DNA of 63,243 nucleotides, the filler included, from Dugesia japonica (Eukaryota), in assembly GCA_001938525.1 (NCBI GenBank). It is 6 parts of 6 records of this genome, joined end to end, with 100 filler letters (N's around TTAATTAATTAA, not from the genome) between each part and the next. Parts side by side here need not be neighbours in the genome. Positions count along the whole stretch, not along the records: positions 1 to 11,755 come from MQRL01648509.1; 5 more parts are not named here. One strand, 5' to 3'. Both the position numbers and the translations under genes were made by a program. Positions 253 to 49,049 of this stretch are shown here, one piece after another. Position 1 is the first letter of the stretch. Every line of letters starts with the position of its first letter. The notes below the pieces were generated by a model, which ran no database searches, was not told the DNA's origin, and worked only from the letters and a program-made list of their open reading frames with translations.

Positions 253-3200
253 ATGAGTACTCAAATATTTAAATGTAATAATTGTCAAAAGAATTTTAAA
301 AATCTATCGGGGTTAAAAGCCCATGAAAGATCTAAAAAATGTAATACACCAATTGAACAATTTCAATGTCAAACATGTCGTAAAAAATTTAATTCTAAAA
401 ATAATTTAGATGAACATTTAAATGCAACAAAATGTGGAAATCGTGGAATTGTTTCATTATTCTGTGAAATATGTAACAAACGATTTTTAAGATAAAATCA
501 TGCAAGAACACATTACAATTCTGATAGACATAAAAAAATGTTACTTGATAAATCAAAAGTTAAAGAAGAAATTAATTTAAAAGAGGGAATTAGAGATATT
601 CTAAGTAAATATAAAAATTATGAAATTAAATATTTAAAAGGTGTAAAAGTAGAAATGAAATTAAATGTAGATGAAATATTTAATGAACCAATTAGAGATC
701 TTAACATATTTTATAAACAAGTAAAAGAAATTATTACTAAATATTTTAATTTCGCCAAACAGATAATTGTTAGTATGGGTGTTAAATGTAGATATGGAAA
801 ATCAATAAATAATGAATATGTTGAAAGAGATTTTACATCTTATTCAATCAATAAAAATGGTGTCAATGAAATATTTAATGAATTAGATAAATATATAGAA
901 GATAAAGATAGAGAGGGAAGTGGATGGTCAATGTCGCACATTATAGATTTTACATTAGATCTTTCTAAATATCAATCATTAGCAGGCGCGACTTATTGTA
1001 AATTGCCATTTAAAAAATCTGGTGTAATAAATATAGAAAATAAAGATGACAAATGTTTTCTATATTCAATTTTAGCCCACAAATATTTAAATTCTAACCC
1101 CACATATGTAAGTAATTACATTTCTCATTTATCAGATTTAAATTATAATGATTTTGAATTTCCAATGAAAATTAGTAATATAAGCAAATTTGAAAAATTA
1201 AATAATTATCAAATTAATGTGTTTAGTGTTAATGATAATAAGAAACTTGAACCACTGCACATTTCACATTATATAAGAAATCCTAATCAAGAAGAAAATA
1301 AATGTAACTTATTAGTATATAAAGATCACTATATTTTATGTAGAGATATAACAGTATTTTTTACATCAGCAAGTAGAAACACAAATTATCCATGCATCAG
1401 TTGTATGAATTGTTACTCAAGAGAAGCGGTATTAAATATACATCAAGATGCGTGTATTAGGCATAAACCTAATAACATTATTTTTGAATATAAAAATTAT
1501 TATTCATTTAATAAATTTTACCAGAAAAATAAAATTCCATTTATAATAATTGGTGATTTTGAAACATATACAAATTCTATTACTAAAAAACAAAAAGCTT
1601 TGTCTTTAGGTGTTTATTTAAAATCAGATTATCCACAATTATTAAAAAGCAAATATTATGAATTCTTGGGTGAAAATATTTATGATGAATTCTTTAAATT
1701 TTTAGAAGAAGTTAATAATGAATTAAATGAAATAAAAGATAACAAATTATTTAAAACATATTCAGGCACAAACCATCCAGAATATACATTTGACACTAAA
1801 TGTTATTATTGTAATAATTTAATATATGACACCCCAGTTAAGGATCATAACCATTTTAATGGTGAATTTAGAGGATGGGCATGTAATAAATGTAATGAAA
1901 ATGATCTATCAATTAAAAATTTATTTATTCCATTTTACTTTCATAACGCATCAGGTTATGATAATCATTTATTCTTTAGAGAACTAATGACTAAATTTCA
2001 AAGTAAAGTAAAAAAGATAATACCCCACAGTAGTGATAATTACATTTCATTTCAATTTAAAAATATAAAATTTTTAGATTCGGCTAGATTTTTACCTTTT
2101 ACATCTGTGGAAGTAATGGGTAAATTGTTAACTCAATCAAACAATTACCCAATATTAACATCATTTAATTTAAAACCTAAAAAGGCATTATTTCCCTATG
2201 AATATGTAAAAGGGGAAAATATTCAAGAAATAGAAGAATTATTAAAATCAAATCGAACACCAACTAGAAATGATTTCTTTAACACTTTAACTCAAAAAGA
2301 AATATCTAACAATGAACATGATGAATTTTTAATAGATTATTTAGATTATAAAAATATGTGGCAATACATGTTACACTACATGAAATTGGATGTATTAATA
2401 TTAACTGATTTTCTAGAAAACTTTAGAGACTCATGTATTAATAATATTTTAAAACTAGATCCGTGTTATTCATATTCAGCACCAGGTTATGCGTGGGAAA
2501 CTGGAATGCTAAATGTAAATGTTAAACTTAAATATGCCAAACCCGAAACTTATGATATTTTCTTAATGATTGAAGAAGGAATTAGAGGTGGATATTCTGG
2601 TGTGTGTGGCAAACGTCAAGTATTTTCACACAATAAAAATAAAGATCCGCATACTAGAGAAGTAAATAAAACACAGTTTGAAGATTTAATAAAAATTATA
2701 AATTCTGGTCAAATAATCTCTGATGAATATCTTGATGATATATTTGAAGACACATTTATAAAATATTTAGATGAAAATAGTTTATATGCCAGTTGTATGA
2801 CTAGACCATTACCAACTGGTGAACTTATTGAATGCTCTGGGTTGGGTCCCTCTGGGTTAGAATATGAAATGTCAAATGATAACATTAATTTTATTTATGA
2901 AGTCAATCTAGAATATCCACCAGAAATACATGATAGAACTAAATATTTCCCACTTGCACCAGAAAGAATTAATATTAGACCTTAGATGTTAACCAATTAC
3001 CAATTAAGTTTTAACAAGAAAATATTAAAAGATAATATTAAATTAACACTTAATCAATTAGACAAGAAAAATTATGTATGTCTAGGATCAACATTAGATT
3101 TATATTTAAAATTAAGAATGAAACTAAAAACAATTCATAAAAAAATTAAAATGCCAACATCTACATGGTTTAAAAATCATGTTCATAAATTAATTGCATT

Positions 3201-4053
3201 AAGAAAAGAATCTAAAAGAATAAATGACGTGTTTGGTGATTACATTTACAAATTAATGTTGAATGCGTTCTATGGTAAAACACTAGAAAATATCAGAAAT
3301 AGATGCAATGTTGAAATTGTAGATAATGAGAAAGATTATCAAAAGTTTGCAAGTAAAACGACTTTTAAATCAAGCAAAATTTTTACAATAAATGATTCTG
3401 ACGAAGCAGAAATTGCAGCAATGAATATTGAAAAAGGCAATTTAAAATATAACAAATTTCCATATATTGGATTCACAATACTTGAACAAGCCAAACAAGT
3501 AATGTATGATTTTATATACAATCAAATGGATCCATTAATTGGTAATGAGAATTATAAAATTCATTATTCAGACACGGATAGTATATTTGTTGAGATAAAA
3601 CATAAAGATAATTTAGAGTGATTACAAACTTTACTAGGTAATGAACTATTTCAGATGAAGGATGAATTACCCAATTCTGAAATAAATCAAGCCAATTTTA
3701 TAAAAGCAAAATCTTATGCTTATTCATATAGCGCAGCCCACACAGGACAAACGGGTTATGACTCTAGAAATAAAGGTGTTAAGAAAAATAATAAATTATT
3801 AATGCAAGATTTTGATAATGTATTAAAAGATCCAAATAAAATAATTAATGGGGTAAATTATTCTTTAAAATCAGAATTACACGAAATTGAATTAGTAGAA
3901 CAAAATAAAATAGCATTAATGGCATATGATGATAAGCGAATTATAGAAGATAATGGAACAACAACATGGTAACATGGAAATCAATATTATTGTGAAAAAT
4001 GTTACATGTGCCATTTAAGATTAGACAAAATAAACGGAACATTAAATTTTTAA
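253..4053 (+). pseudogene. Protein-primed family B DNA polymerase with N-terminal zinc fingers and an inserted EndoVII/HNH-like domain; 4 in-frame stops
   Basis: ORFs 253, 538, 2986 and 3655 share one frame, separated by TAA 493, TAG 2983, TGA 3619 and TAA 3970. Motifs: Exo GDFET, HNASGYD, YMKLDV; Pol YLDENSLY, KLMLNAFYGK, YSDTDS; C-terminal DDKR. CYYC..DHNH..GEFRGWACNKCN is EndoVII-like. Confidence 0.95.
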
Positions 4054-4062
4054 TATAGAAAA

Positions 4063-4639
4063 ATGACAGATAATCCAACAGAAGAAGAATTAGAAAAAAT
4101 AGTTAATTCTAAAAAATGTAAATCTGTAAAGATAAATGGTAAAAATTATTATATCTCTAAGAAAGTTAAAGATGAATTAAAAAAACAAAAACAAAGTAAA
4201 GAAGGTGGATTTGCATTTCTAGCTGCAATACCAGCAATAATTGGTGCGTTAGCAGGAACTGCTGGAATTGCATCTGGTATTGCATCTACTGTAGCCAGTT
4301 CAAAAGAAGCAATTAAACATCAAAAAGAGATCGCAAAGCTAGACTCTGTACAAAAAGCCCAAAACACAAACAACAGAAAGCACAACATTTGGTAGTGGTT
4401 TATATCTTAATCCATATAATGGTAATGGATTATATCTAAATCCATATCAAGGAAACGTAATACATAAATATTTTAAAAATATTAATTCTAACATGAAAGA
4501 TGTAACAAAAAACTTTAAAGATGGAATACAAATAATTAAAAATGGAAATGGTTTATATTTAGCACCATGGAAAAATGGCGAAGCCCAAAATGGGCAAGGC
4601 ATTTATTTAAATCCTTATAGAGTGAAACATGAATACTGA
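4063..4639 (+). pseudogene. Adenovirus pX-like virion core protein with GxG(L/I)YLxP repeats; frameshift near 4385
   Basis: KEGGFAFLAAIPAIIGALAGTAGIAS resembles the adenoviral pX hydrophobic tail. The shifted frame reads FGSGLYLNPYNGNGLYLNPYQG...NGNGLYLAPW...NGQGIYLNPY. A homolog lies at 46236-46797. Confidence 0.75.
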
Positions 4640-5602
4640 ACAAGTTAATGAAAGAATTAAAGAATTAAAAGCATTAATTAAAGCTCAACAAAATTATAAT
4701 GATTTTTTCTGTGGTAATGTTATTGAATCTAGAGAATTACAAAATAATTTATCCACTTTATAACAACCAACAATAAAAGCAATTGAAAAAAGTAAACCAT
4801 TAAAAGAAGAACCAAAAATAATAGATGATGAAATAATAGAATAACCAACAATAGATTTATTCACTAAAGATGTAATTACTAACATGTTAATATCTAAAAC
4901 TGTATTTCCATTTTCACCAAGTAATTTAACAGTTAATAATGAAGTTCTATCACCAACAATAATTCCTATAATTGATATGGTAATTTTAAAACCAGATAAT
5001 AAAAAAAAAGATTATTTTATGATAAAACAAACGTTGCAATATTTTTCTATTCAACTAAAGGTGTAAAACATTTAGCAATAAATAATACAATTTATGAAGA
5101 TGAATATGAAGATGAATTTGTTGATGAAATGATGGGTAATTTTAGTACTTCTTCTAAACTAAATAATCCTATAAAAAGGTTTATAGCTAAATATTTAACA
5201 GAAATAATAAAACCACCCGGGAGACATACTTATTGTCAATATTTAAAATCAATAATTGATTTAAATTTTAAATCAAAAAGTAGACAAACAAGTAAAATTG
5301 ATCCAGAAGATGTTAGTCTTGCTTTAGAAAAAGAAAAAGAAAGCACAAAGAAAGAGGGTGAAAGCACTACGCCGGCCTCCGGACAAGCTCTTAAGTACGA
5401 AGTCCATAAAGGACAAAATCTTAAATTAAATCCTCTAGCATTATTTGAAAAATTAACATTATTAGTTTCAGCTGTAAAATCTGGACATGATAATCTTAAT
5501 GAAGATATTAAAAAAGTATGTAAAAAATTAAAGATGATTGGTTTAATATCTAACATGATTTATGATAAATATAAAACTAAATATTTTTCATCTAAGAAAT
5601 GA
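4629..5602 (+). pseudogene. Conserved Polinton-associated protein of unknown function
   Basis: ATG 4629 is in frame with ORF 4884 (TAA at 4761 and 4842), then a poly-A frameshift near 5005 leads into ORF 5129. The C-terminus NPLALFEKLTLLVSAVKSGH...IGLI resembles the PxxLxxRLxLL..AGN motif I recall from Polinton ORFs. Confidence 0.6.
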
Positions 5603-6279
5603 GTCATCAATTCTTAGTTGTTGGTAAAGAACAAGATTTAGTAATGGATTTGAAATATCCTATAGAATTAGATTCTGAGTATGAACTTGGATTATTATGT
5701 TTTAGTGTTTACAATGTTATTTTTAATGTAACAAAATTAAATAATAAATTTACTATTGATAGTAAAGAATATACACTTGAACCTGGATCATATGAAGTTA
5801 AAGAAATATCAGAAAAATTAATAAAAAAATATGGAATAGAAGTTACACCCGATATATCAACTGCTAAATGTATCATGAATACAAAAAAGATATTAACTTT
5901 TGATGATAAATCTTTCTTACATAAAATCTTAGGTTTCTCTGTTAAAACTTATCAACCTGGTGAATACTTATCAGATAATAAAGTTGACATTTCAAATATT
6001 AATACAATAAATTTAACATGTAACATTGTTTAAGGTAATTATGTAAAATCTGAAACGGGTGAAACAGAACAAATGAATTTATTACATTCATTTCCAATTA
6101 ACTCAGTTCCATTTGGTTAAAAAATTTTAGAAAGACCATCAACAACAATTTATTCTAAAATTAATACAAATTACATTTCAAGATTAAAATTTAATGTTGT
6201 AGATGAACATTTTAACACTATAGATTTTAGCCAAGAACTAATTACAGTTTTAGTTCATCTACGTAAATATCGATTATAA
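5599..6279 (+). pseudogene. Minor capsid (penton, single jelly-roll) protein; 2 in-frame stops
   Basis: PIELDSEYELGL..FSVYN..FNV..NNKF, PGSYE, ILGF, CNIV*GNY, PFG*KILERP, VVDEHFNTIDF..ELITVLVHLR. TAA at 6031 and 6118. Confidence 0.85.
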
Positions 6280-6286
6280 GAAATAG

Positions 6287-6745
6287 ATGTCAGATTATAA
6301 CTTATTAGATTTCTTAAAAACATTTGGTAATAATACAACTACAAATTTTGATTTATATTCAATTGCAAACTTTTTAGATCTGGATTTAGAAATTTATATG
6401 AAGAATGAGATCCAGGAGCTTGCGACTGGTAAGGATTATATTTTTAATTATCAAAATTCAAATCAAAATGGAATACATTGGACCGCCCGTAAAGGCGCCT
6501 ATTATTTTGATTCTTTTGGTTTAAAACCTTTAGATTAAATTGAACCACATGTAAAAGTTTATAATGAAATTCAAGTGCAACATTTTGGAACTAAAATATG
6601 TGGTGTATTATGTATTTACTTTTTATATAAGATGGAGTGTAACGACAAAGATAAAACATTTGACATGATAATATCCGAAATGAAAGATTTATATGATAAA
6701 TTAGATATAAGAAAAGAGCGTGCGCAAAACCATAAAGGAGAATAA
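6287..6745 (+). pseudogene. Adenain-like cysteine maturation protease; 1 in-frame stop
   Basis: GIHWTA, YFDSFG, then past TAA 6536 QVQHFGTKICGVLC, giving the His-Asp-Gln-Cys pattern. Confidence 0.9.
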
Positions 6746-9672
6746 TGAATAAGTTTGGTGAAAGTATTCATGGTGTTAATACAACACAAATATAAAAAAC
6801 TATAGATGCTAAAATTAAAATATCAGATGCACAAAATGAAAGTAAATTTGTAAGTGAAACAGGTGACACAATAACAACTTTAAAAATAACAGAAGATCCA
6901 AAAGATCTCTCAGATGCGGTTAATTTAAAGTATATTAAAGAGTTAGAAAATAAATTACAAAGTCATGAATTTTTACTAAAGTTTTAAAGATTGATAAATT
7001 TACAATTAGTAAAACATATTTACAATTAAAGCCGATGAATTAAACAAATTAAATAATATTGATTTCTCTAAAGAACTTAATACTATAAATGATAAAATTA
7101 AAAATTTAACAAAGAACTGTAATTAGGATACATTTGGTAATATTGATTCTGATATTAAAAGAATAAATCAAATACTTTTCCCATTTAAAAGAATTGATTT
7201 AAGTTCTAATTTAAAAAAATTAAGTGATCGTGATTTATCTGGAGAACAACGTGGTGATTTAAGTAAGAAAATTAAAAAAGATATTTTAATGTTAGATAAT
7301 AAAATTATGAAATTACCTCTTGATTTGGATAAGAAAGCATTTGACCAATATTTAAATAATATTAATGTTATTAAATTAAATATAGAAGATTTTAGATCTA
7401 AAATCAATAAAATACTTAATGAAATTAAACCAATAAAATTAAGACAACGTAAAATTTTTGATGATAGAATTAATGTTTTATTTGAAACTTATAAAGAAAC
7501 ACTTTTGGATTTATCACTTAAAAGTTTAAAAGAAATAATTGATAATTACTTACCTTATGTTTTTATAAAAATCAACAAAATAATATTTCCAATTACATGT
7601 TATGAAAAACATGAAACACTTCCTCAATTTAGTGTTATGAGTAAATATGTTCACAATTTAGATTTTAAAAGAAAAGGTATAATGAAACTTGTGTCAAATA
7701 TTCAATATTTTTATCTTGAAGAATCTTTAACTATTATTTTACACACAAAGATAAATGAAAAAATTAGTATAGGTATAATTGGTTATTGTGATATTGAAAA
7801 TATTTTTTATACTATTAAAATTAACCAATTATACTATAGATTTATATATGTAAAATCACAAAGTAATTATATTGATATTTTTAGAGAAAGCACTGAAATT
7901 AATGAAGATGTAAATATAAATTTTATTGAGATAAATTTACCACAAGGAATTTATTTACAGGATTTAAGTGTTAGATTATTTAAAATAGAAATTGTTGATA
8001 GATTAAATAAAGAATTTAAAAGAATAAAACCAAATCTTCACAAAATTCATGTTGATAAAATTAATGTTTTATTTAAAAATAATAATATTAAAAGTTCAAA
8101 AGAAATAATTTATAATTACTTACCTTATGTTTTTATACCAAGTAATAATTCAATATTAACAAGTAACTGTTATCAAATTATTCCGCAATTTCATATAAAT
8201 GATCAAGTAAAGAATATAGATTTTAAAAGAAAAGGAAGAATGATAAATCAAAAGGGTTTTTATCTTGATGAATCTTTTTCTGTTAAATTAGATGTTAACA
8301 TTAATGAAAAACTTTGTATATTTATAGAAGGTATATGTGAAAAGCGATTTATTTACATTATTAAAATTAATAATATAGCAATAGCAACAGAATATTATTT
8401 TACACCTGAAACCGAAAAAATAGTAATTTATCGTGAAAGTACTGATATAATAAAGATGTAAAAATAAATTATATAGAAATAATTTTACCATAAAAAATTT
8501 ATTTAAATCATTTAATTATTAAAACATATAATTTTAAAATTTATGAAGAATTAAGTAAAGAATATAAAAGAATAAAACCAACCCTACATAAAATTTATAT
8601 TGATAAATTTAATATTTTTTCTAAAACTTATAACACTAAAAATATAAAACATTTAATTGATAATTACTTGCCATATTCAAATACATCCTCCAGACAAATA
8701 TTATTTTCAATAATTCTTATGAAAAAAATGATAATCTTCCTTATTTCACTGTTATAGAGAAATATGTATATGATTTTGATTTTATGAGAAAAGGTGGAAT
8801 TAAACATACAACATTTAATGATCATTATTTTAATATTAAAGAATCTTTAATTATTTCTTTACATACAAAATTAANTAGAAAAGTTAGTATAAGTATAGAT
8901 GGTTTTTGTGAAGTTCCAAAATTTAATTATATTATTAAATTTAATAAAATTGCAGTATCATTTTTATATGTTAAACCTAATGATAATCTTGTTAACATTT
9001 ATCGCAAGTGATGAAATTATGAAAGATAATAATATAAACTTTATACAATTAATTTTCCAAAAAGGAATTTATTTAATGAATTTTAATGTTAAATTTCTTG
9101 TGGATAAATTTCCTGAATTATTAACAAAAGAATATGAAAAAATAAAACCAGAACTTCATAATATTCAAATAAAAAGAATTGATCTTTTAATAAAAGAATA
9201 TCTTGAAATTGGTGATGAGTTAACATTAAAAAGTATAAAAGAAATAATTGATAATCACATACCATTAGACACAGCGTATTATGAAAATCCTGATTTGTTC
9301 TGTTTTGGGGTGGTTTTCAGAGAACAACTAAAACCTTTTTATCGTATTAATGAAAAAGTAGAAAGAATAGATTTTAAAATAAAAGGAAAAACATTAAATT
9401 TAAATAAAATGCCACATTATTATATTGAAGAGTTGTTTGTTATATCTCTAAAGACAATTTCTACTTTAAATAGTTTTAAATATGATGTGGTGGGTTATAC
9501 CGAACTTAATAAATTTACTTATACTATTAAAATAAATAATATTCCTAAATCATATATTCAAGAAGTATTTAAAAATAATTTTTTTATTGAAATAAAGTTT
9601 AATGAAAATATTAACTTTATAGAAATAACTTTACCTAGAGGAATTTATTTAACGAATATTTTTCTTAAATAA
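6745..9672 (+). pseudogene. Large putative fibre/receptor-binding protein: stalk-like N-terminus, coiled coil and four tandem domains of about 185 aa; several stops and frameshifts
   Basis: N-terminus MNKFG...FVSETGDTIT...DPKDLSDAVNLKYI resembles fibre/stalk motifs. The repeat unit IKP..H.I..D.IN.L...IIDNYLP...DFKRKG...Y.IKIN...NINFIEI.LP.GIYL starts at about 7424, 8024, 8572 and 9142. Confidence 0.65.
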
Positions 9673-9673: not shown

Positions 9674-10291
9674 ATGGGGAAAATATATCCTAGTTTGTCT
9701 GAAGACTATACAAATTGTCCGGAGTCCAACTTTACTATTTTAGATTTAAAAAATAAACTGTCAATGTCAAGAATTAGAGATTTTGAAAATGACTTATACT
9801 TTATAAAAGATAAAATTAGACATTATAAGAAAATACATAAAAGATGGAACAGAATAGATTCAGGTATAAAATATACACAAATAGGTGTTAGGGCTATAAT
9901 TGGAATTGGTGGTGTTATATTAATTACTCCAATTGGAATTGCACTTGCTACAATTGGTATACCAATAATTACTGGTGCAATTTCCATGTTACCTGTAATT
10001 GGAACATTAAACACTTCACTTATTAAATCGAGAAAAGAAAAATATGAAAAGTTAATAATTAAGCTTGAGGCCGTTAAAAATAAATTATTTCTATTTTAAC
10101 AGAAAGCAGTACATGAGGAAATATTAACTGATGATCAATTATTAATTTTTAAAAATATGATAAATGAAGTTCATGAATTAATATCTGGACATAAACATGC
10201 AAGCGAAGCGACCCACCGTGAAAGTTTAAAAATGTTAGTTGAAAATCAAACTAAAGTTATAAATGAAATGAAAATAAAGCTAGGAATATAA
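9674..10291 (+). pseudogene. Two-TM membrane protein; 1 in-frame stop
   Basis: IYPSL N-terminus, basic helix and a long Gly/Ile-rich hydrophobic hairpin. The frame continues past TAA 10097 (QKAVHEEILTDDQL...) to 10291. A homolog lies at 44157-44310. Confidence 0.7.
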
Positions 10292-10343: not shown

Positions 10344-11141
10344 ATGGAAGATGTAATAAGTAAAATTGAACAAGTAATACCTAAAATTAAAAATGGTGAA
10401 AAGTTAAAAAAAGAATTAAAAGGTTTAATAATAACACTTGATAATTTAATTAGTTCTGAATCAGAAGATGAAATATTTATTGAAGAAGAATATATTGAAA
10501 TGAAACATGAACAAGATGAAACTGATAATGAAATAGAATCAATTGTATCTGAATCTGAATCTGAAGGCGCTGAGCTGGACTCCGTACAATCTGAATCTGA
10601 ATGTCCAGAGGTTGGTGAAGCGCAAAATCAAATAGTTAGATTTAACATTCAAGAATCAGATAATTTAGTAATTATTACTAATCCTGATAATTTATCAGTA
10701 TTAAAAAGAAATACATTTAAAGAATTACCAGATTTAGAAGAATTTGATCCACCTAAATTTTATATGAAAATTAATCCAAAAGCAACACGAACTATTCAAA
10801 TGGCAAGTGGACAAATTAAAGATGTAGAAAATAAACAATTAGTTAATAGGCAACTGATATTACCATTACCAATTGCTAAAAATGAAAAAGATACAATAAA
10901 AAGAACAATAAAAGATGGAAAAACAATAAGAGCAAAATATTATCCAACAGATAATGAAGATGATGTTAAAATGGCAATAAATAAACCAACTACTTTTAGA
11001 ATGGAACTTTATAATTCATTTAATAGCAACAAAAGATTTAAAGTTCCATTAAAAGATATTAAAATAGAAGAATTTAGAGAAAATTGTGCAGTATTATCAA
11101 CAGAAAGTCCAACTGAATTATTACATGAATATAAGAGATGA
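10344..11141 (+). CDS. Hypothetical element-encoded protein with an acidic Ser/Glu tract
   Basis: Uninterrupted 265-codon ORF in the Polinton array, with an ATGA overlap to the next gene. No motif recognised. Confidence 0.7.
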   Translation: MEDVISKIEQVIPKIKNGEKLKKELKGLIITLDNLISSESEDEIFIEEEYIEMKHEQDETDNEIESIVSESESEGAELDSVQSESECPEVGEAQNQIVRFNIQESDNLVIITNPDNLSVLKRNTFKELPDLEEFDPPKFYMKINPKATRTIQMASGQIKDVENKQLVNRQLILPLPIAKNEKDTIKRTIKDGKTIRAKYYPTDNEDDVKMAINKPTTFRMELYNSFNSNKRFKVPLKDIKIEEFRENCAVLSTESPTELLHEYKR

Positions 11142-11755: not shown

Positions 11756-11855
11756 NNNNNNNNNNNNNNNNNNNNNNNNNNNNNNNNNNNNNNNNNNNNT
11801 TAATTAATTAANNNNNNNNNNNNNNNNNNNNNNNNNNNNNNNNNNNNNNNNNNNN
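11756..11855. other. Artificial assembly spacer
   Basis: 44 N + TTAATTAATTAA (stop in all six frames) + 44 N. Confidence 0.95.
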
Positions 11856-24988: not shown

Positions 24989-25088
24989 NNNNNNNNNNNN
25001 NNNNNNNNNNNNNNNNNNNNNNNNNNNNNNNNTTAATTAATTAANNNNNNNNNNNNNNNNNNNNNNNNNNNNNNNNNNNNNNNNNNNN
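24989..25088. other. Artificial assembly spacer
   Basis: 44 N + TTAATTAATTAA + 44 N. Confidence 0.95.
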
Positions 25089-26187
25089 AAATAAATAAAA
25101 ATTTTACTCGAAATTTACATTGTAATTAAAATTATTTCAATGTAAAAATTTTCTTATGTTTAAATTTAGAAATTGAATTGAAAGTAAATAGATTTTCCCA
25201 AAACCGATTGAAAATTCATTCTTTATATAAACAATTAAAAATCAATAANNNNNNNNNNNNNNNNNNNNNNNNNNNNNNNNNNNNNNNNNNNNNNNNNNNN
25301 NNNNNNNNNNNNNNNNNNNNNNNNNNNNNNNNNNNNNNNNNNNNNNNNNNNNNNNNNNNNNNNNNAATAATACAAATTATAAATATTTGTACAAAACTTC
25401 GCAATTTGATCAATAAATAAATAAAGTCGGTAACAACAGATAATATAATGTCAAAAAATCAGATCGGATTAAGGTCAATCATTGATCTCGTTGTGATTTG
25501 GTTGTCGATCATTGATTTGGTAGGGGTTGTTCTTTGGATTCGAGTGTGTTTGTGTAGATCTTGTTATGTATCTTGTGGATATATGAATGCATGTGTATTT
25601 AAGGTGTATTTAGGGTTGGTTATTCCCAACATTTAAAAGCTACTAGTAACCTAATGAAATCTCAGACGCGATCAATAGTTAAGTCCAAAAATTATTCTCA
25701 CAATAATTGAAATTATTAACTGTATATTTTAAATATAGTTCAAATATAATTTGTTTAAGGTATTTAAAATAAAGATTATTTAACAAACACACTCTTGGTA
25801 AATTACGAATTGAAAAATTTTCTTTTTTTCATTAAAAAACAATGCTAAAATATGAAAAACGAGTAAATGATTTGTTAAAACTAAAAGTCAAAACTATTTA
25901 CATATTATTTCAAACCATATTTCAATTAATTCTCGTCATAGTAACATGGAAATTTTCTTTTCTTCTTCAGTATTATTTGAATTGTTTGTATAAATACATA
26001 ATTGATTTACTTTACACACATCATATTTACCCAGTAAGATTAATCGAATTGTCTGTTAACTAGAAAATATTTTCATTTTCTAGATATTGTTCATGCAAAA
26101 TGAGTCTGGAAGGCACCTGTGCATATAATTAAAAGCGTAAATCGATATTTCTTTTATCAAATCGATTTTGTTAATATTAATAAAACA

Positions 26188-27006
26188 ATGTTAACCAAAA
26201 CAATATTACTATTATCTATTTTACTTGCTGCATATGGATATAATATAATTAGTGAACGAAATGACTACAGTTGTTTGAATAAAGTTTGTAGAACTGTGAG
26301 TTATCAATTATATTTTGACGGAAAATCGTATCGAATGTTAATTTCTTCTGAAACCCCATGTAGTTATTTAGCATGCTCCAATTGTACTTTAAAATCCAAA
26401 TGGGATCTCTTTCAAATAAACAATGAGTACTATCTAACTAGATCAACTCAAAATTGTTATGCGGAACAGAAGAAATATTTTACCGATATTTTCCCCTATT
26501 CAAATAGTCCTGGCATCAAATCCGTTTCTGAAATTTCCTGCGTTAACTATTATTGTTACAAATACATTTATGAATTAAGTACAGTTTTAAAATCATATTA
26601 TAACGGTAGTTGTGACTATTCGAATTGTCAAAATTGTAAAATGGCATCTCAATGGTTACAGAGATTTCAGTCATATCCTGATTACATGGAAAGACAAACA
26701 GAAGATTGCAATGCATCAATAAAATTAAAAATGGTTGACTTTTTTATTATTCCAAGTAAGATTTTAAGAGTAAATCCAACTTCTATATTTTCAAATTAAT
26801 AGATTATTCAATGACAACAGATAACATGAAGGATTATTTATTTATCGGTATATTGTAATAATAAAAATATTTAATGATACAACTAAATTTCAGAAACTTT
26901 TTGGGATGCTGGCAGAATTGTGGCTATAATAATTAGTTGTCTTGCATTCATCATACTTATAACGGTTCTCTCAATTTGTTTTTGTGGACGCCAGAAACCT
27001 TATTGA
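26188..27006 (+). CDS. Host gene with 3 exons (26188-26755, 26803-26847, 26894-27006): 241-aa type I membrane protein with two 6-Cys repeats
   Basis: Signal peptide MLTKTILLLSILLAAYG. Two GT-AG introns (47 and 46 bp) keep the frame. The TM segment IVAIIISCLAFIILITVLSICFC is followed by GRQKPY*. No disablements seen. Confidence 0.8.
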
Positions 27007-28119: not shown

Positions 28120-31100
28120 TGTAAGTTACTGGTAAACTTTCTGAAAAGTCCATTAAATTGTATTAAAGTGTAAATCCATTAAAGTGTATTTCAAAATTCT
28201 TGAAATCTTTTGAAACATTTTCTTCAAACTTTAAATTGCGATTTTCAATTTTTAATCCTTACATCCCCTTCGATTAAAAGAATTTTTTAAGCTTTTCTAG
28301 GTTTCTTTCTAGCTCTTTTCTCTTTCTATTTCGTATACGATATCTTCTCTCATGTACCTTATTCTTGATCTTGTTTAGACCAGCGTATCTTTCATTGTCT
28401 TTTGTTCTAGTTTCTAGTTTAATCAATACTTAGTCTCCCACTTGAAATGGTCTTTTTATAGGTGTTTCTTCCATTAACTCTTTGTCATCTTTTTATCTGT
28501 CAAGTTATTGTTCTCTGTGAATTCTCCTACCGAATACTAATTCTGCTGGCAATATCCCCCAATATCTTTTGCCTTGTCACATTCATCATGTATTCAATCT
28601 GCGGTATCCTGTTACTCCAATTTTTTCTTCTATCTTCATCTGCGGCTGCTTTAATACAGTTTCTAATTGTTCGGAATTTTCTCTCTATATTTCCGTTTGT
28701 ATTGTGATGGTACGAACTTGAAAAGTGTATTTCTATATTCATCGATTCCATCAGATTCTTGAAGTTTTTCGATTCAAATGTCTTACTGCTGTCTACGTTA
28801 ACTTCTCTTGATGCTCCAAATCTCAGGATCCATTTTTCCATTATCACTTTTTTAATTGTCTCATCATCTTGCTTGCTGATTGCCGTTAGGCTTACGTATC
28901 GACTGCATTGGTCTGTTATTCCACATATATATCTTTGTCTGTTCACAGTCTCTCGAAAAGACCCACATACGTCCATATATATCTTTTCAAATGGACAATT
29001 TTCGCTTTTTTTTTATGTTGTCTCTTCTGTTGCCACCGTATTAACTTTGTTCTTTTGGCACGCTTCACACTGTCTTATCACTTCTGTGATTGTCTTCTTC
29101 AGTTCTTTCGTGTCGTAGTTGCTGATTATATAGCTGATCATTTTCTCTGTCCCTGCATGTATTAACAATGTATGTATCTCTTTGNNNNNNNNNNNNNNNN
29201 NNNNNNNNNNNNNNNNNNNNNNNNNNNNNNNNNNNNNNNNNNNNNNNNNNNNNNNNNNNNNNNNNNNNNNNNNNNNNNNNNNNNNNNNNNNNNNNNNNNN
29301 NNNNNNNNNNNNNNNNNNNNNNNNNNNNNNNNNNNNNNNNNNNNNNNNNNNNNNNNNNNNNNNNNNNNNNNNNNNNNNNNNNNNNNNNNNNNNNNNNNNN
29401 NNNNNNNNNNNNNNNNNNNNNNNNNNNNNNNNNNNNNNNNNNNNNNNNNNNNNNNNNNNNNNNNNNCTATATATTAGTTCCATGTCTAAGCTGCTAAGGT
29501 AATTCATCCATGTCTGGAATTGAGGTGTTATCGGTTTGTTGGTCTTTTTCATGAATACGATGGCTTTGTGATCTGTTCTCGTTATGAATTTTTTTCCATA
29601 TTAATAATGTTTAAAGTGGTTGCAGAAGTAGTAGATTGTTAGTAATTCCTTCCGTGTGATACAGTAACCCATATCATGTGATGTCATTGCGTGTGAGTTG
29701 TAAGCAATAACTCTTTCTTTCCCATCATCATCCTTTTGTGATAGGACCGCTCCTATTGCGTCGACGCTGGCGTCAGTATCTAAAATAAATATCTTCTTTA
29801 TATCAGGAAATCCTAAAATAGGTGCTTCTATCAGTACTTGTTCATTTCTGCGAAAGCTTTCTCACATCGATCTGACAATATTAGCTCCATGCTGTTACTT
29901 CCACATAATTCTTCTAGGGCTCTTGATTTCTTTGAATAATTCTTGATGAATCATTAGTTCCTATCAGCTCCACATTTGTCAGACTTCTAAAAATATTGAG
30001 GCTCATCCCGTTTATCTTTGCTACTGTATCCAAAAGGCAGTTCATATATCTTCCTTGAATTCTAACTTCCACACTGGACCTACCTTGCATTCTATCATAA
30101 TTTATTTTTACTTGTTCATTCTCTTCTAATACAGTTATTTTGTTATCACCATTTCTAGTTTCTTTCATTATAATGATATCTGCATTATACATATCTTTGA
30201 AATCTTTCTTTTAAAACGCATAAACTTTTCTGTCGACTCTTTCCTCTTTAGTTTCATCTTTTATACTATTAATTAAACTACTTTTACTATACATACTTAT
30301 ATCGCGATCTGAATTGTTTTTCAGTTCATTGCTCCAATCACCTTGACTTTAGATGGAGCTTGTCTAATTGGGGTCACTTCTCCATAGCTGTTTGTCTCCT
30401 CGTCATAATAATAAATATTATCTCCACTCTTTATGCACTTTTCATCCTCTTCTACCATTGCGTTTAAGTATCTACTGCCATCTCTTTTCCTGAATCCATT
30501 ATTAACTGATGTCTTTCCATTCGGTTTTGGGAATCTGTTATTATCGTCATATCTTCTGTTGTATTGTGCCGCTTCGTTTCTTTGTTCGTTATTCTGCTGT
30601 CTTCTATCATTAGTCCACACACCTCTTTTCTCCAAATTAATTTAACATTGTTCTGTATGATGTCCATTTTTTCCACATCTTGAACATCTATTTTTGTCAC
30701 AATTCCTTCTTATATGATTCTCTGATCCGCATGCGTTACACATTATTTTCTATTCCGGACAATGTCTGCTGAAACGACCTATCTTCTGACATGACCAACA
30801 TGTAATTTCTTTTTTATCTTCACTTTGAGTTTTTTTAACTCTTGAGAAGCGTTTTTTTGTCATGCCTCTTTTTACTGCATTGCTGTAACTCTCCACCGTA
30901 TTTATTTTATCTGTTTCTTTCAAGTCCTCCATTAGTTCATCATTTGCTTTTATTGTTTCAAATATCTCTTCCGAGTTAGTTAGTTTGCCTCCTTTAATCT
31001 TTATTTGCATTCTTTTATAGCGGCAACTATTGAATATTAATTTTTTTGTCATCTCTTCTTTGTCTAGTTTGTGTGCAAAGATTTTATAAACCAGTGTTAA

Positions 31101-31701
31101 AATTTTTTTTTTGTACACATAAACGTGTTCATCCGTTCTCTTGTATTTTAAAGCTTCCTCTAAGTCTTGTATTAGAGTAGTCTTNNNNNNNNNNNNNNNN
31201 NNNNNNNNNNNNNNNNNNNNNNNNNNNNNNNNNNTATTAGAGTAGTCTTTTTGTGGAACGCTTTTCTCAGTCGGTCCTCAAAATCTAATAATTCATCTTG
31301 GCATTCGTTTGCTTCTCTTAATTCTCGATCAATTAAGCCAACCACCAAGAGGTTTTTATCCTTTTTCTTTACACCAATACATTCGAACTATTTGGTGCAA
31401 CCATTGATAAATTGTTCAATATCGTCACCATGACGGTAAATTCCTGGGTGTAGTGCTTCTTGAATGAGGTCCATTGAAGCGTTGGGCACCCTGCTAGTTA
31501 CTGATAAACTTTCTGAAAAGTCCATTAAATTCAATAAATTTTTTTAACACAAAATTTCAAATCTTCAAATCTTCCAAAAAACTATATTTGTAAAATCTGA
31601 ATATTTAAACAAACATTTTAAATATTTTTAAAAATTTTTGAAATCTTTTGAAACATTTTCTTCAGACTTTAAATTGCAATTTTCAATTTTTAATCCTTAC
31701 A
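28120..31701 (-). mobile_element. Ty3/Gypsy LTR retrotransposon with both LTRs and 5-bp TSD GGGAT; RT deleted
   Basis: LTRs 28120-28263 and 31492-31701 (TG..CA). GGGAT at 28115-28119 and 31702-31706. PBS-like GGTGCCCAACG and a PPT next to 28264. Gag CCHC knuckles, protease LLDT, RNase H and integrase are present; protease joins RNase H at about 29945. Confidence 0.9.
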
Positions 31702-34366: not shown

Positions 34367-34466
34367 NNNNNNNNNNNNNNNNNNNNNNNNNNNNNNNNNN
34401 NNNNNNNNNNTTAATTAATTAANNNNNNNNNNNNNNNNNNNNNNNNNNNNNNNNNNNNNNNNNNNN
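34367..34466. other. Artificial assembly spacer
   Basis: 44 N + TTAATTAATTAA + 44 N. Confidence 0.95.
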
Positions 34467-35479: not shown

Positions 35480-35997
35480 ATTGCAGTGACTGATGAAGAA
35501 AGCGAGATTCACATATTTGGTTTACTGAAAATGACATTGACATTTATTTCATGAAATATATTCATAATCTAATTTACACCAATATTAAAACCTACATTGT
35601 AGAAATACTTTCTTCCAATATTAGTTATGATATTGTTACTATTCCCAAAAATATCCATAAAGCAAAAATAATATTCTGTCCTCTAAACATTAAAAGTTCT
35701 CGTTGGATCCTCTTTCTTTATAATAAAATCACATTGACATCTATTTACATTGATCCCATTTATAAATTTCAACATAAAATTGACAATAAAATACGCGCAC
35801 TTAAATTAAACACTACACTTAAACTTTTTAAAATGTATTTAATCTTGTGTTATATTCCTCACAAAAATATCATTTACCAAAAAAATCTAATGATTACGGG
35901 CCTTTTACTTGCGCTTAATCTGTTTACATACGTGTGGAATGAGACTCAATTCCTGATGGATTCATTGAAGACATTAGGAAGAAAGTTCACAAATTGA
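35480..35997 (+). pseudogene. Degenerate Ulp1/C48-like peptidase domain, probably transposon-derived
   Basis: IIFCPLNIKSSRWILFLY...YIDPI and, in a shifted frame, NDYGPFTCA. The catalytic His and Cys appear substituted. Confidence 0.45.
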
Positions 35998-37134: not shown

Positions 37135-40100
37135 TGTAACAAAAATATTTCATAAAAAAATTTTAAAAAAACTCAATTTTATAGGATACGCAGAACATGC
37201 CATATCCTTTGTTAGATGAGTTTAAAGAAATCATCGGATTATCAACATCAAAATTCAACTCCATAAAATTTATTTCAAATAAAAACAAACATTTGTTTTA
37301 TTCAAACAAATTAAAACCCATGCTTCAATTGAAAATTATTTTCTAATAAATTGAAATTTTAAATTAAAACTTTATTTAAAATACTTCGAAAATTTAAGAA
37401 AATAATTATTTCTTATCGAAATTTCATTTAAAACTTTCACAAAATTTTAATACAAAACATTATTCGCTATATAAATATTTAATTTTACAAATTTTAAAAC
37501 AAAACATCATTCGCTATTAAAATATTTAATTTGTAATTTTACAAATTTTGAAAATAAAAATATTTGTGAATGAAAAATATTTGTGTATAAGAAATATTTG
37601 AATTAATCTTTAACTACACAAAATTTTCGTACCAAAACTTTCATTTAATTTATTTTAATTTATTGATTAATTTGTGACTTCCAATTTTTGAATAAGAAAT
37701 GTTAAAAAATAAATTCCAATCAAAGCACAAAATTTCAACTCGCTTCAAAACACACTCACATCCTCCCTTATAAGAATTTTTTTGATCTTCTCTACGTTTC
37801 TTTCGAGAATTTTTCCGTTTGTATCTTCCAGAATGTAACGTCTGTCATGAATCTTCCTCTTGATCTTATAGAGCTTTTCAAAATGATCTTGTTTCAGCTT
37901 TCACCGACATTGAATTGTCTTTAGATTAATATCTCTTCTTCTTGTTCTTTGTGCACTCTTAGGGTATTTGTTTCATAATATTTTCCTCTGCTAATTCTTT
38001 CCCCAAATACGACTTCAGAAGAGCTTTTCCCAATAGTTTTCTGTTTTGTAGCATTCAAGGTAAATTCTCAATTCATCCGCTCAATCTGAGGTTTTTCTTT
38101 CTTTACGTGTTGCATTAATCTTATCCCGGATAGTTCTAAACTGTCTCTCGATTTGCCTATTTGTGTTATGATGATATGGACACGAAAACTTATGGGTAAT
38201 TCCATGTTCAGCTGCAAAATCTTTCATTGCTTTAGACTCAAATGCTCTTCCATAATGAACTCTAATTTCTCTCGGACACCCGAACTTTAATATCCACTTC
38301 TCCAATATTGCTTTCCGTATGGCATCTTCACCTTGTTTTATCATTACTATCAAGGCTACATACCTACTGCATTGGTATATTATACCGAGAACATATTTAT
38401 TTGATCTCTTGTCTCCGGCAGTGGTACACACACATCTATAAATAACAGTTCAAACCTTTCAGCAGACTGCGTTTTTTTGTTTCTTCCTTCATTTTTGTTA
38501 TCAATATTTAAGCTTTCTGGCATGTTATACAACTTTGGACAATTTCTTGTACCTTGCTCTACAAATGTTTCGCGTTATATTTATGCTTTATATAAGCTGC
38601 TACCTTTTCTGCTCCAGCATAACACAAAAGATTGTGTATCCTCATTATAACCTCTTCTACTTTTTAATCAGGTATCCATGTTCCTTCATCATTCTCACCA
38701 AAATTGCCTGGTTTTCCTTGAATATATTCTGTATTTAACATACTTGTTTTCAATTTTCTACTTTTATGATCTTCATGTGACATTAGACATTGTGTACATG
38801 TACCGCATTCATTCCTTGAAAACATATCGGCATTTGCATGAAGCGATTCTTTTCTATATTCTAATTTTATCTCTAAACTGCTCAAATGATTATTCCAGGT
38901 TTGAAACTGTGATGTAATCGACTTCTTGGTATTTAGCATAAAAGTGATGGCTTTATGATTTGTCCTGAAGATAAATCTCTTCCCATATAAGTAATGTTTG
39001 AAATGAATACAAGAGTAGTAAATTGCGAATAATTCTTTCCGCGTAGTACAATATCCCTTCTCATGACTCGTCATTGAGTGTGACCCATATGCAATTACTT
39101 TTCTTGGTCATTGTTGTTCCTTTGAGATAGTACTGCCCCAATCGTATTGAAACTCGCATCCGTGTCCAAAGTAAATCCTCTATTTATATCTGGAAAACAT
39201 TATATTGAAGACATTATTAGTGCTTCTTTCATTCCATTAAAAACTTCTTCTAATTTGCTCACCCATTCAATTTTCTTGTTGCTTTGTTTTTATCTTGTTG
39301 CTTTGCCATTATCATACAGATTTTTGATGGTCTCCTCAATCCTCTACTCTAGATTCATTGGTTGGCGATATGGCGTTATGTTGATTGGACCTCTTTTAGT
39401 GATTATTCGATGCTTCCTTAAGTGTGTACATCCAATTGCCCATTTATCCGTCATAAATACATCATCATTATTCTTAATAATTTCAGTTAATCTATTATCT
39501 TTAATAATTTCTAGAATCTCCATTGCATATCTCAATCGTTCACTCATCTGTATCTGCCTTCTAAATTTTGCCTCAATGTTGCAAAACAATTTTTCTCGAT
39601 GATTATTGATGTCTACCCTGCACATTTTTTGAAGATGATACCCAAAAATATTCTGAAATCCACTCCACCAATTAGATCTGGTATTACTTTCTCTACTATT
39701 ATAAATTTTACTTCCTTGCACACCTCTGAAACTACAACTTCAAAACGTATCTTTCCAATCGTCTCCATTGAGCAGTTATACGCGCAATGCAATCGTTCCT
39801 TGTTTATCTTTAACATTGTTTCTCCAAGTCAATTAAATCCTTTCATGCTCATCACATTTATTCTTGCTCTTGTATCTAGCAAACAATCAAACTGTTCACC
39901 TTGATAATTACTGAAATGCTAGGTCTCCCTTGCATTTTATCATACGAAATTTTTGCATTCTGTTTTTCTTCAATTATTTCTATCACTTTTGCTTTGTTAA
40001 CTTCCGCATCATTGAAAATTTCTCTTTTTATGAATCTGTAAACCTTTTCACTGACTTTAATCGTCTCATTCTATTTCTCGGCCTCCAAACAGCATCTTGT

Positions 40101-40590
40101 TAAAAGGAATGGCTACGACCAACTCCTTTACTGATGGAGCCCTGCCTTTTTGGTATTCTCTTCTCGGATCTTCCTTTTCTATTATTCTCCCAGAAAAAAT
40201 CTCGTCATTCTCATCATCATTCTCTTCTTGAATGGCATGGATTTGTTTGGTCCTACTCCAATCTTTGTCTGCTGTCCGCTTTTAAAATTGTATCTTCTCT
40301 CTTCTAGTCTAGGTTCATTAATGTTAGAATTACATTCTTCTGCTATGTGAGCTAGTCCTTTACATCTACCGCATACAATTTCTGCGCACATCCTTTTGAT
40401 ATGACCAATTTTATTACACCAAAAACATTTTGGTGGTTTCTTGTCTGTATAATTTCTACTTAAATGTCCTTTCTTGTGGCAAGTCCAACATTCCACTTGA
40501 GAAATATTTGGACACTCTTTTCGTATGCACATAACTCTGGCATATCCAACACTGTGGTTCTGTTCTTTTTGTTATTCTCTCGTTATTTTG
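37135..40590 (-). mobile_element. Ty3/Gypsy relic: gag knuckles, protease, RNase H, integrase, PPT and probable 3' LTR (37135-37760); RT deleted
   Basis: CWTCHKKGH and CFWCNKIGH knuckles; CLLDTRA; LDTDASFNTIGAVLSQ; PYHHNTN.QIERQFRT; PPT AAGGGAGGA before TGTGA at 37760. Confidence 0.85.
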
Positions 40591-40899
40591 TCTCCTCTCT
40601 CCGGTACGTTCTTAACACTCGCGTAACTCTTTACTACGTTAATAGGTTCTCTTTTATGACACAAGTTAATGAGAAAATCCTATTTTACTTTTTTATTTTC
40701 TATTAAACCATAGAATTTGAAAGTAATCCGTAAAAAAAATTGACGGTGAGGGGTGTTTACTTTCAAAGGTGATTTTCATATTGAAAAAAACATTTTTTGA
40801 CAAAAGTACTCTATAATATACTTTCCCATTCATTTCCCAAAATGCTCCCGGAGCACCTACTATCCAAAAAAGCATTCAAGTTTAACAATCTTGCTCGTG

Positions 40900-42480
40900 T
40901 TCTTCGAAAAAGCCGTTTTTTCTTGCAAGTCTTTTTCTAGTTCTACTTGATAGTATGTATTTCGTTTGAGCTGAAATATACATTTCCATGAAATGCATCT
41001 AACATATCATCTACATTAGGAATAGGAAATTCTTGTATTTCTGTAATTGTGTTAAGCCTTCTAAAATCCTGACAAAGTCGTATATCTTTCTTCTCCTTTT
41101 CCATATGCAAATTAACGATGTATGTTGAATACATCGTTAATTTGCATATGAATTTGCAGGTGAATTATATTTGAGAATAATACCGTTTCCCACAAAGTTT
41201 CAAAACGTCTCTTCCATTTGATTTTCTAAATGCATCAGAATTTTACATAATTTTACCATTATTGGCTCAGCTTTTGTCACAATTCTATGTTTCACAATGT
41301 GAGTGCAACACACATCCCATTTGGACGCCATAAAAACATTTATCTGACGTCTACAAATTACCTGTAAACAATTTTCATCCCGCACCTCAATCTCATTTTT
41401 TACTTGTTCACATCGGTTACTGATACTTTCTTCAATATTTTCTACCAATTTCCCATTACCTATCTTTCTAGATACCTCATTTTCTCTACGTAACTGGAAT
41501 AAAAAAATACGTAGGAAATTTTTCACTGCAATGATATCTGGAAACACATTTTCCGCTACTAAAAATTCAGCTCCAGATATGCTCTTACCTAAGTGCACCT
41601 CCAATCGCACTTTCCATTAAATTACAAAACTACTACCATTAGCACAATGTAACTTCATCTCACTAGGTACTTTCCTTGCTTCTGGTTATCTTTCAAAATA
41701 NNNNNNNNNNNNNNNNNNNNNGAGTGTTCTGGTGTCTAAAAGGCATTCTAACTCTACTTCATCGATAGTTATCATCACTCTCGATCTACACTATAATCAA
41801 TCAAATCTAATCACTAATTCTTGTCCTCTTGACAACACACTCATAAATTCTACTTCACCTTCCAGCTGAAACTTCTCTTTCTATAAAAACCTATCAACCT
41901 TTTCGCAAACCTTCTCTCTATTTTCCCACGTCTCCATATAATAATTGACCCCTACCAAATCCTCTCTTGGTAGAGCCCTCTCATTTAGCTGCGATGATTT
42001 TAATCAATTTTCTTCTAACCTGTCCCCATGTTGTTCCCCTCATATATCGCTTCAACTGAATTAAAATATCCAAACCGAGCTTTTTTGTTCTTGTCTCTAC
42101 AGTTCTGAACTCTGTTTGATCACTTTATCAAACTTCTTGGCATCTTATCTCTTTAAAACTTGCTCTACCACAACGGAAGCATTTTTACTTTGAACATTTA
42201 TTTTTCATATGTCACAACGCACCGCAACCCAAATACCTAATCGTTGACTTTTTATACAATTCTCACTCAAATGTCACTTCTACTGACACGATCAACATTC
42301 TCTAGATTCTCCCAAAACATTCAACTGTTCCTTCTAATCTTCGAGGTTGCCCTGTCACAAGAGTACTTACTATTTATTATTTATAGTTTTTATTCTATAT
42401 CATGTAGTACCTTCCGGTCAATTTAATATCAATGTCAAATCGTGGTCCACTTGAACTGAATGCGTAACAAACGTTCTATT
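40900..42480 (-). mobile_element. Ty3/Gypsy fragment (gag, protease, RT N-terminus)
   Basis: CLLDTRT at about 41735; KHRIVTK.EPI; IRLCQDFRRLN...FPIPNVDDMLD. Confidence 0.75.
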
Positions 42481-44056: not shown

Positions 44057-44156
44057 NNNNNNNNNNNNNNNNNNNNNNNNNNNNNNNNNNNNNNNNNNNN
44101 TTAATTAATTAANNNNNNNNNNNNNNNNNNNNNNNNNNNNNNNNNNNNNNNNNNNN
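44057..44156. other. Artificial assembly spacer
   Basis: 44 N + TTAATTAATTAA + 44 N. Confidence 0.95.
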
Positions 44157-44310
44157 AAACTGTTCCAGTTAGTCCAACAACTGTTCCTATAAATATTTCT
44201 GTAAATCTAATCGAAGTATCTAATCTTCTTTATCTTTTATAAATCTTTTTATAATGTTTAATGTTTTCATCAATAAAATATAAATCAGATTCAAAATCTA
44301 CAATTCGTAA
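44157..44310 (-). pseudogene. Fragment of the 2-TM protein homologous to 9674-10291
   Basis: LRIVDFESDLYFIDENIKHYKKIYKR*RRLDTSIRFT versus SRIRDFENDLYFIKDKIRHYKKIHKRWNRIDSGIKYT. Confidence 0.8.
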
Positions 44311-46235
44311 TCATGGCCTCATTGTATTACTGAGAGATTGTACGTTGGAGATACGGATCGGTTTACTAGAGAGCTCCTCTTTCAGTGATTTTATCTGAGC
44401 TAGAAACGACTCCCGAGCTCTCTCAATTTGGCACTCGAGAGACTGGATCCGTGTATTTTTATGGCTAGTTGGAGACGAGACATTTCATTATCCGCTTCCA
44501 AATTACTTATCATATCACGAGTAACTTTGGCCTCTCGATATAATATCTGCCGGATTCGTCAATGTAAGGCCAGACATAACATGGTCTCCTCAGCATTCTT
44601 TTCTGTTGAGGCATCTACGTTATTCAAATTTAAATAATTGATACAAATTAAAATTCAAGAACATTAAAAGAAAATGTAAATCTTAAGAATTATTAAGTTG
44701 ATTTCTTCGGCCTGCGGCCTAATATGTCTTCGTCCCCGCTTCTGTAGTACGAACCAGAGAAGATTTCCACTAAAGTGGCCATCTCCCTTAGTTCCCACTA
44801 TTGCGGAGTTCTAGCAGGAACTTCCCTATCATGGTTTGAAACATTAAAATTAAAAGTTTATTATTCATTACTTCTTCACCGTTCAATTGATCATATTAAA
44901 AACACAGCTTTTAGAATTATATAACTATACTATTTCTTAGCATTTTAAGAAAAATTCATTTACATTGAAAGCTTAATTAAATAACGAAAAACAAAACAAA
45001 AAATCAATTATACAATTCAGTATGCAATTTATATTCATAAATCGAGCTCCCAGCCCCCGCACTTTCATCTCATTTCTTGTTCCTATTCTTTGAAACTATT
45101 TTCACTACCGCAAGTTAATTCATTCTCTTTTTCTCTTAACTCTATCCATTTCACCCGAATACTAATTTTATTAATAGAATTCTTTAATTTTCTAAAATTC
45201 GATTTTTTTCTTTTAGAAAAGATACATTATGGTGTTTTTGTACTATTTTCCGACTTCGATTTGATCTAATTTATTTAACGGATTTCTCATTCTAATTTGC
45301 ATATTATTTCAGGATATTATTCTCTCATTTAGCAAAAACACATTATGGTGGAGCACAGTTTGAGTGGCAATCGGGTACTCGGATCTTACGATATATTGTA
45401 TAAAAGTCAATAGAGTAATATTGCACAAATAAAACAAAAATTTACCTTTTCCAATTATCCGTTATTGTCCTTGGCTAATATAATTAACTTTTAAGATTAT
45501 TCTGATATAATTAACTTCGGAAAGGGTACAGCTATAATTAATTTTGATAATGGTACTCGATGAAAGAAATAATAAAAAATTAAATTGTAACTCTGATGAT
45601 TTTCTCGGTGCAAACGAGTTTTATTCCTCGTTTGCACCCCAACTTTCATCGATTCATTTGTTCGCCAATCATTACTTTGTTTTGGTGATTCTTTCCTTCT
45701 GATTGGACGATACTACTTAAAAATCGAGGTTGCACGTCGTTTCCTATCCGATTGACTTTTTGTCCCACACCAACTCGGAACTGACTTCCACGTCATCAGT
45801 CACCTCGTGTGACCAATGATAGTTACTGTGGAAAAGTCATTGTCTAGCAGGAAATGATTCATCTGTTTTATATATATAGGGTTATTTATAATAAATAAAA
45901 CGGGTCGCAGAGACCCTTCTAATATATTATTATATTATCGTAGATTATTTTTATTATTTATTTTCTCATTTACTCTTCATACATCTACTTTGTATTTCTG
46001 TATCTTAACTTTAGGGTCTCATACGCCCGATTTTCAATATTTGACATTTCCCAAAAGTTATAAATAATAGTTATAATGATAATAATTACATAGTAATAAT
46101 GATAATCCTGTATGTAATAATCAATTTTCTGGTCCAGACCATCAACTTTGTGTTTACTCTTCACTATTTTTGGAAACTTTTACCAATCTTTAAATACTTT
46201 ATTACTACAACAATTTTTTATGTCCTAGCCCAACA
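44311..46235 (-). repeat. Truncated long LTR-like insertion (family 2, TGTTGGGCTAG start) nested in Polinton B
   Basis: The minus strand begins TGTTGGGCTAGGACA at 46235 and carries CCAAT boxes. It separates the pX-like and 2-TM genes. No TSD found. Confidence 0.55.
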
Positions 46236-46797: not shown

Positions 46798-46862
46798 TTT
46801 CTTTTAAAAAATAATAAAAATATTCTTATACAAATCCTAAAGGGTCCCATTCAAATCTTCTT

Positions 46863-47631: not shown

Positions 47632-47715
47632 TTTTATTAAAAAAAATTAAGATTTGTTTTTATGATCAAAAGTTATTTTTTTATCAAAGAATTCTTTTAT
47701 TTCACTTTGATCTAT

Positions 47716-48117: not shown

Positions 48118-48126
48118 TTTAATTTA

Positions 48127-48960: not shown

Positions 48961-49049
48961 TTCTCTTTATTTTCTTTATTTTTATTATTTTTTCAATTTA
49001 AATCCTTACTATTTTTATTAGAGTGAAAAGTCTTCGCTTCGCTCAGACT

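Follow-up and report, generated by a model that had tools for sequence, protein, structure and literature searches.

A window of 63,243 nucleotides from Dugesia japonica (assembly GCA_001938525.1), by which we mean the whole stretch of six joined genome parts that was analysed, begins with a part (MQRL01648509.1) carrying a Polinton, and the gene described here occupies positions 6745..9672 on the plus strand of this element. It is almost certainly one gene with four repeats, and most probably it belongs to the Cah/tail-fibre class of adintoviruses. Each repeat consists of a helical linker and a beta-sandwich head, for which structure models make a jelly-roll fold of the carbohydrate-binding module (CBM) type very likely. 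We lean towards a reading in which the product would be a Polinton/adintovirus attachment fibre, placed at the virion vertex, whose four lectin-like domains would bind cell-surface glycans by avidity.

Trained on seven further open reading frames (ORFs) of the element, a codon model follows one unbroken path of best frame from about 6720 to 9600, with frame switches near 6985-7030, 8450-8460, 8690-8700, and 9008-9013. The junctions at both ends are tight: the gene's ATG at 6745 shares bases with the stop codon of the protease gene (TAATG), and the stop codon at 9670-9672 lies 1 nt ahead of the next ATG at 9674. The first-pass annotation had joined an upstream piece and the ORFs at 7289, 8784, and 8899 into a single gene of roughly 970 codons, and the continuous path over 976 codons bears this out; ATGs are present at all three positions, but ORF 8899 opens with ~38 codons that are a shadow in the wrong frame. 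In-frame stops are located at 6793, 7124, and 8491 and a single N at 8875; a further stop, at 6985, probably arises from the first frame switch. Because the genes of the polymerase PolB, the penton, and the protease also carry stops and homopolymers are not enriched at the breaks (a run of at least five in one of four break windows versus 29 of 97 in the background), sequencing error was rejected as their source and they are read as decay of an integrated copy, the genomic copy now being dead. The three stops correspond to about 2% substitution since inactivation, far below the divergence between the repeats. Over 1145 codons PolB shows two breaks, neither of them a frame switch, versus seven in 976 codons of the fibre gene (binomial p 0.057), and decay may have proceeded faster in the virion genes than in the polymerase. 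It has also to be considered that the locus encodes an accessory protein outside the virion, secreted or cytoplasmic, with a host-modulating role, or separate genes seemingly fused after decay. No intact copy was seen (the window holds no second copy of the fibre gene) and no statistical homology to a virion protein was found, which would suit such a protein, but the single frame path, the two tight junctions, the absence of an in-frame Met anywhere between 7013 and 7288, the lack of any hydrophobic signal or membrane-spanning segment by hydropathy, and the Cah motifs and gene order described below leave it with very little probability.

The four repeats each open with IKP, at 7424, 8024, 8572, and 9142, and are 199, 182, 188, and 176 aa long. 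All six pairs align significantly (34-48% identity; z 17-37 with 300 shuffles per pair), in agreement with the repeats and starts proposed earlier, and 28 of 205 columns are invariant across the four. At the DNA level, identity is 67-68% over 805-1251 nt and the repeats are also detected by a repeat finder; plain BLAST suffices to align them, and their description as highly diverged was too strong. The motifs listed for them are present approximately but not exactly in each copy, the histidine of IKP..H.I being kept in three repeats, exact DFKRKG in two, and exact IIDNYLP in one. Repeat 4 is 34-38% identical to the others and forms the longest branch of the repeat tree, whose one inner branch, which would give the duplication order, received no support.

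Structure models were made for repeats 1 and 4, with the linker helices predicted at low confidence. In both models, a helical linker is followed by a two-sheet jelly-roll beta-sandwich of ~120-140 aa, and fold searches place both in the galactose-binding/CBM jelly-roll class. CBM and lectin entries predominate among the matches listed for both repeats, which include CBM4/16/22/35 and the RBD1/D3' domains of CDTb and iota Ib, at 5-18% sequence identity. What had been taken for one domain of ~185 aa with an unrecognised fold is therefore a linker plus a beta domain of a recognisable class, and the proposal of duplicated beta-rich heads gains support from both the repeat alignments and the models. 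A Foldseek search of BFVD with a weak model of repeat 1 gave high-rmsd matches and was set aside. Among the best 50 fold matches of repeat 4 no entry is named TNF or C1q, which does not exclude a TNF/C1q-like head.

The top match of repeat 4 is domain 1 of C381 of Sulfolobus turreted icosahedral virus (STIV), in a tie with iota Ib/CDTb and others, all within 1 Z. This match would be expected if the repeats formed a turret-like stack as in STIV, that is, tandem jelly-rolls on a pentameric penton, possibly homologous to C381, in place of a trimeric fibre. Besides the tie, C381 is not among the best 50 matches of repeat 1 (which does not exclude C381), and a Cah-type shaft and helical linkers such as those found here are not described for it in the parts of the literature covered, so that a turret appears highly improbable.

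Whether the heads bind glycans is an even question, the case for it being made by analogy with known systems. The same fibre and fold could carry heads that bind host proteins or act as spacers, with only the terminal repeat 4 binding a receptor and repeats 1-3 lengthening the stalk. Such an arrangement would be consistent with the absence of Trp from all four repeats, with the divergence of repeat 4, with protein-binding jelly-rolls (MAM, Eph, Elapor1) scoring close to CBMs, and with C381 itself, which binds pili via domains 2-3 and not via the matching domain 1 (PMC10551542). Against it stand the predominance of CBM and lectin entries among the listed matches and the richness of the repeats in Tyr (11-14 per repeat). 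Like Trp, Tyr can stack on sugars. On balance we regard protein-binding or spacer heads as unlikely, though worth keeping in mind. For the CDTb domain that matches the heads, binding on a glycan array has been reported (PMC8001090; here and below, statements on papers cited by PMC number refer to those parts of the papers and supplements that were covered).

At the N-terminus, MNKFG (6745), GDTIT (6862), and DAVNLKY (6913) occur once each. The same motif set is found in adintovirus Cah/'hyaluronidase tail fibre' entries of supplementary file 2 of PMC11071296, by eye and at motif level without an E-value, the Cah shaft motif set being our own reading of these entries and not a definition given in that paper. 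Many of them open with DKFG and contain GDTM and DA[VA][NT]K.Y motifs several times over; in the supplement text DAATK was counted 22 times, DAVNK 20 times, and DAVNL eight times, some of these in unrelated proteins. Several entries stand beside Adenain, in one case with SLATT on the other side, and several carry one or two terminal beta-rich heads that by eye are discoidin-like or C1q-like. The fibre-like motif noted in the first-pass annotation is accordingly that of adintovirus Cah/tail-fibre proteins, and membership of this class can be assumed with good confidence. A word-index search with the N-terminus gave 0 of 37 candidates and Pfam and PHROGs no significant match, the penton control being equally blank. 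The segment following DAVNLKY is probably helical and a coiled coil, as predicted earlier, is plausible, but the heptad signal is only weak (best hydrophobic fraction at a/d positions 0.50-0.57). A trimer prediction for the stalk plus repeat 1 gave no answer (uncertain chain fold, no controls) and is evidence neither way; by analogy with known fibres, a trimer is nevertheless fairly probable. In the reading that we favour, the N-terminus would dock on the penton, as in known systems, and the shaft repeat and helical stalk would trimerise. The helical linkers would prolong the stalk, so that four jelly-rolls project in tiers, 12 per trimer; these heads would bind host cell-surface glycans, and their duplication would mainly add reach and avidity.

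The first-pass annotation had further supposed that the heads diversified to bind several receptors. Counting by NG86 yields dN/dS values of 0.78-1.23 between repeats; as G/C occupies the third position in only 63 of 742 codons, these values near 1 were set aside as an artefact of AT bias after a codon-frequency model had been fitted, the estimate being model-dependent. Under that model, omega is 0.03-0.37 (pooled 0.19, the pairs not being independent), and omega = 1 is rejected downward in six of six pairs (2dLL 6.4-25.5). A control from core genes, compared between two elements of the window, gave omega 0.04 over 245 codons and is biased low, being drawn from conserved tblastx matches. The repeats have diverged under purifying selection, somewhat more freely than the core genes, and the supposed diversification found no support. 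If selection for different receptors had driven the four heads apart, thereby widening the host or cell range, one would expect an omega above the control and counting values around 1, both of which are seen; in addition, silent sites are unsaturated (45 of 65 four-fold sites identical versus 0.40 expected at saturation) at only 34-48% protein identity, and decay of the copy accounts for no more than ~2% of sites. All these points are weakened by the uniform rejection of omega = 1 once codon frequencies are modelled, by the low bias of the control, and by the circumstance that constraint may simply be lower on surface fibres. Receptor-driven divergence, which would be compatible with an avidity fibre, is doubtful. 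A different ligand for each head is likewise doubtful, and purifying selection neither shows nor excludes it.

Relatives of the heads were sought in several libraries. Repeats 1 and 4 hit no Pfam family at E<=1 and no curated CBM family, and the repeat profile found no PDB sequence at E<=10. No significant match for the repeat was obtained in PHROGs and Pfam, none by tblastn against phages, none among 8000 scored candidates in a word-index search of longer proteins with the repeat alignment, and none of 206 repeat-pattern matches in prokaryote genomes was confirmed. A profile search of 1.84 billion representatives returned two matches at E ~6e-4, both low-complexity tandem repeats, which were rejected. 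In the Atlas, the top row for repeat 1 (0.90) is an unnamed cluster with a weak recognition score, rows under 0.8 serving as leads only. The penton control was likewise blank (0 of 19 in the word-index search), and proteins of the window itself were not recovered from the 1.84 billion representatives; the blank searches therefore show poor coverage and not novelty, and the head domain is an orphan only relative to libraries thin on this lineage. In the searched part of the PMC11071296 supplement, IDNYLP, LPQGIY, LPRGIY, and INFIEI do not occur and DFKRKG occurs once, in a PolB, so that a relative could sit in the remainder; a motif search in the supplement of PMC8502044 found none of the head motifs. 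Literature searches among open-access papers listed none that describes the head domain or a fibre with four heads from an adintovirus-type Polinton.

The virion block runs penton, protease, fibre gene, SLATT-like gene (Table 1). By motifs and by-eye comparison, the fibre gene directly follows penton and protease, as had been noted earlier, and in the uAdinto14666 listing (PMC11071296) the order is protease, tail fibre, SLATT. The adintovirus gene set points to an animal host. The penton has no statistical match in Pfam, PDB, or the word-index search, and the protease none in Pfam or PDB.

Table 1 Features of the first Polinton and of its fibre gene
Feature	Position	Strand	Remarks
PolB, protein-primed	538-3972	+	Pfam PF03175, E 4.5e-7
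Penton (minor capsid) gene	5599..6279	+	Two in-frame stops; by-eye likeness to adintovirus Penton entries
Adenain-type protease gene	6287..6745	+	One in-frame stop; HW..., YFDSFG, Q...CG motifs as in Adenain entries
Decayed fibre gene, most probably Cah class	6745..9672	+	976 codons; stops and frame switches
N-terminal Cah/tail-fibre anchor and single shaft repeat	6745..6940	+	KFG start, GDT.T, DP....DAVN.KY; motifs, by-eye comparison
Helix-rich stalk	6941..7423	+	~160 codons; weak heptad signal; probable coiled coil or helical bundle
Repeat 1	7424..8020	+	Unbroken; helical linker, then predicted CBM-like jelly-roll (~7586-7985); model and fold matches
Repeat 2	8024..8568	+	Frame switch near 8455, stop 8491; 48% identical to repeat 1
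Repeat 3	8572..9138	+	Two frame switches (near 8695, 9010); N at 8875; 43% identical to repeat 1
Repeat 4	9142..9669	+	Unbroken, terminal, most diverged; helical linker, then predicted CBM-like jelly-roll (~9298-9669)
SLATT-like membrane gene	9674..10099	+	Hydropathy peak 2.42; by-eye likeness to uAdinto14666 SLATT entry

Elsewhere in the first element, an Endonuclease VII-like match lies in the PolB ORF 538-2982 (PF02945, E 3e-5, above the cut-off), and an unbroken plus-strand ORF of 265 aa with an acidic Ser/Glu tract (10344-11141) lacks a family match. Repeated GxGLYL.P motifs on the plus strand at 4400-4630, also present in a second element at 46250-46420, belong to a protein which we take to be an adenovirus pX-like core protein. 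Gap markers (44 N, TTAATTAATTAA, 44 N) lie at 11756-11855, 24989-25088, 34367-34466, 44057-44156, and 52397-52496; because the first element stops at such a marker, neither the right end nor the terminal repeat of this element is in view. By eye, the second, more decayed Polinton (44150-51000, minus strand) contains pieces of an integrase and of PLA2-like and hexon-like genes; it has the core and SLATT-like genes in common with the first, and non-homologous DNA (~46200 to 44310) takes the place of the penton-protease-fibre block. The window also contains a plus-strand ORF that looks like a host secreted protein, with a start resembling a signal peptide and a pair of Cys-rich repeats (26104-26799), Ty3/gypsy-like retroelement fragments (28500-31300, 38000-41700, 57800-58300; integrase, RNase H, and zinc knuckle by eye), and a Ulp1-like protease piece (35497-35997).

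Host-cell attachment of adintovirus-type Polintons is largely open, and the fibre gene supplies a candidate receptor-binding domain, of which repeats 1 and 4 are unbroken and small enough to be expressed, solved, and probed on a glycan array. Cah was introduced as a hypothetical capsid-surface protein of predicted alpha-helical/coiled-coil character (Buck et al., PMC11071296). With the entries of that supplement, the fibre gene has in common the KFG-type start, GDT[MI]T, P....DA[VA][NT].KY, a probable helical stretch, and Adenain and SLATT as neighbours; unlike them, it has one shaft repeat instead of several and four tandem heads on helical linkers. The gene lends support to the idea of Cah as a modular fibre whose heads can be swapped and multiplied. 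Fibres with tandem carbohydrate-binding beta-sandwiches are also known from protist polinton-like viruses, where laminin-G3 arrays of up to seven domains are inferred by the authors to raise affinity (PMC12220804); those heads are concanavalin-like Pfam domains, often with an S74 chaperone at the end, whereas the heads described here are of the galactose-binding/CBM type, without a Pfam family and without a chaperone behind them. Oomycete Polintons have beta-helix fibres (PMC10748475) and MELD viruses 'Fiber' and galactose-binding 'Lectin' genes (PMC8502044); the text of PMC11296320 that was examined contains nothing on fibres. STIV C381 (PDB 4IND, 3J31) shares tandem single jelly-rolls at the vertex of a double-jelly-roll virus and a role in host attachment (PMC10551542), but is pentameric, has three domains and an archaeal host, and no Cah shaft is described in the parts covered. 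The spike GP13 of vibriophage NO16 (PMC13552765) is trimeric, sits at the vertex, and has a CBM16-like domain and an N-terminal stalk anchored in the penton; it differs in its bacterial host, in that the parts covered describe no four-fold tandem array, and in not being among the fold matches listed. An improbable reading is that the repeat goes back to an ancient jelly-roll of the C381/GP13 type from a varidnavirus vertex, which was joined to an adintovirus Cah shaft and multiplied to four, the heads recognising different host glycans. A lectin fibre with several specificities arranged in tiers would then link archaeal turrets to Polinton entry and give direct access to the question of how Polintons move from host to host. 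The likeness to CDTb/iota Ib RBD1/D3' and CBM4/16/22/35 is in fold only, and the fibre gene contains no toxin domains. A fibre with tandem lectin heads is a design already known, represented here by one decayed copy, to which the gene adds a CBM-type family without detected sequence relatives; what differs from known varidnavirus attachment proteins is the head family and the four-fold array with its helical linkers.
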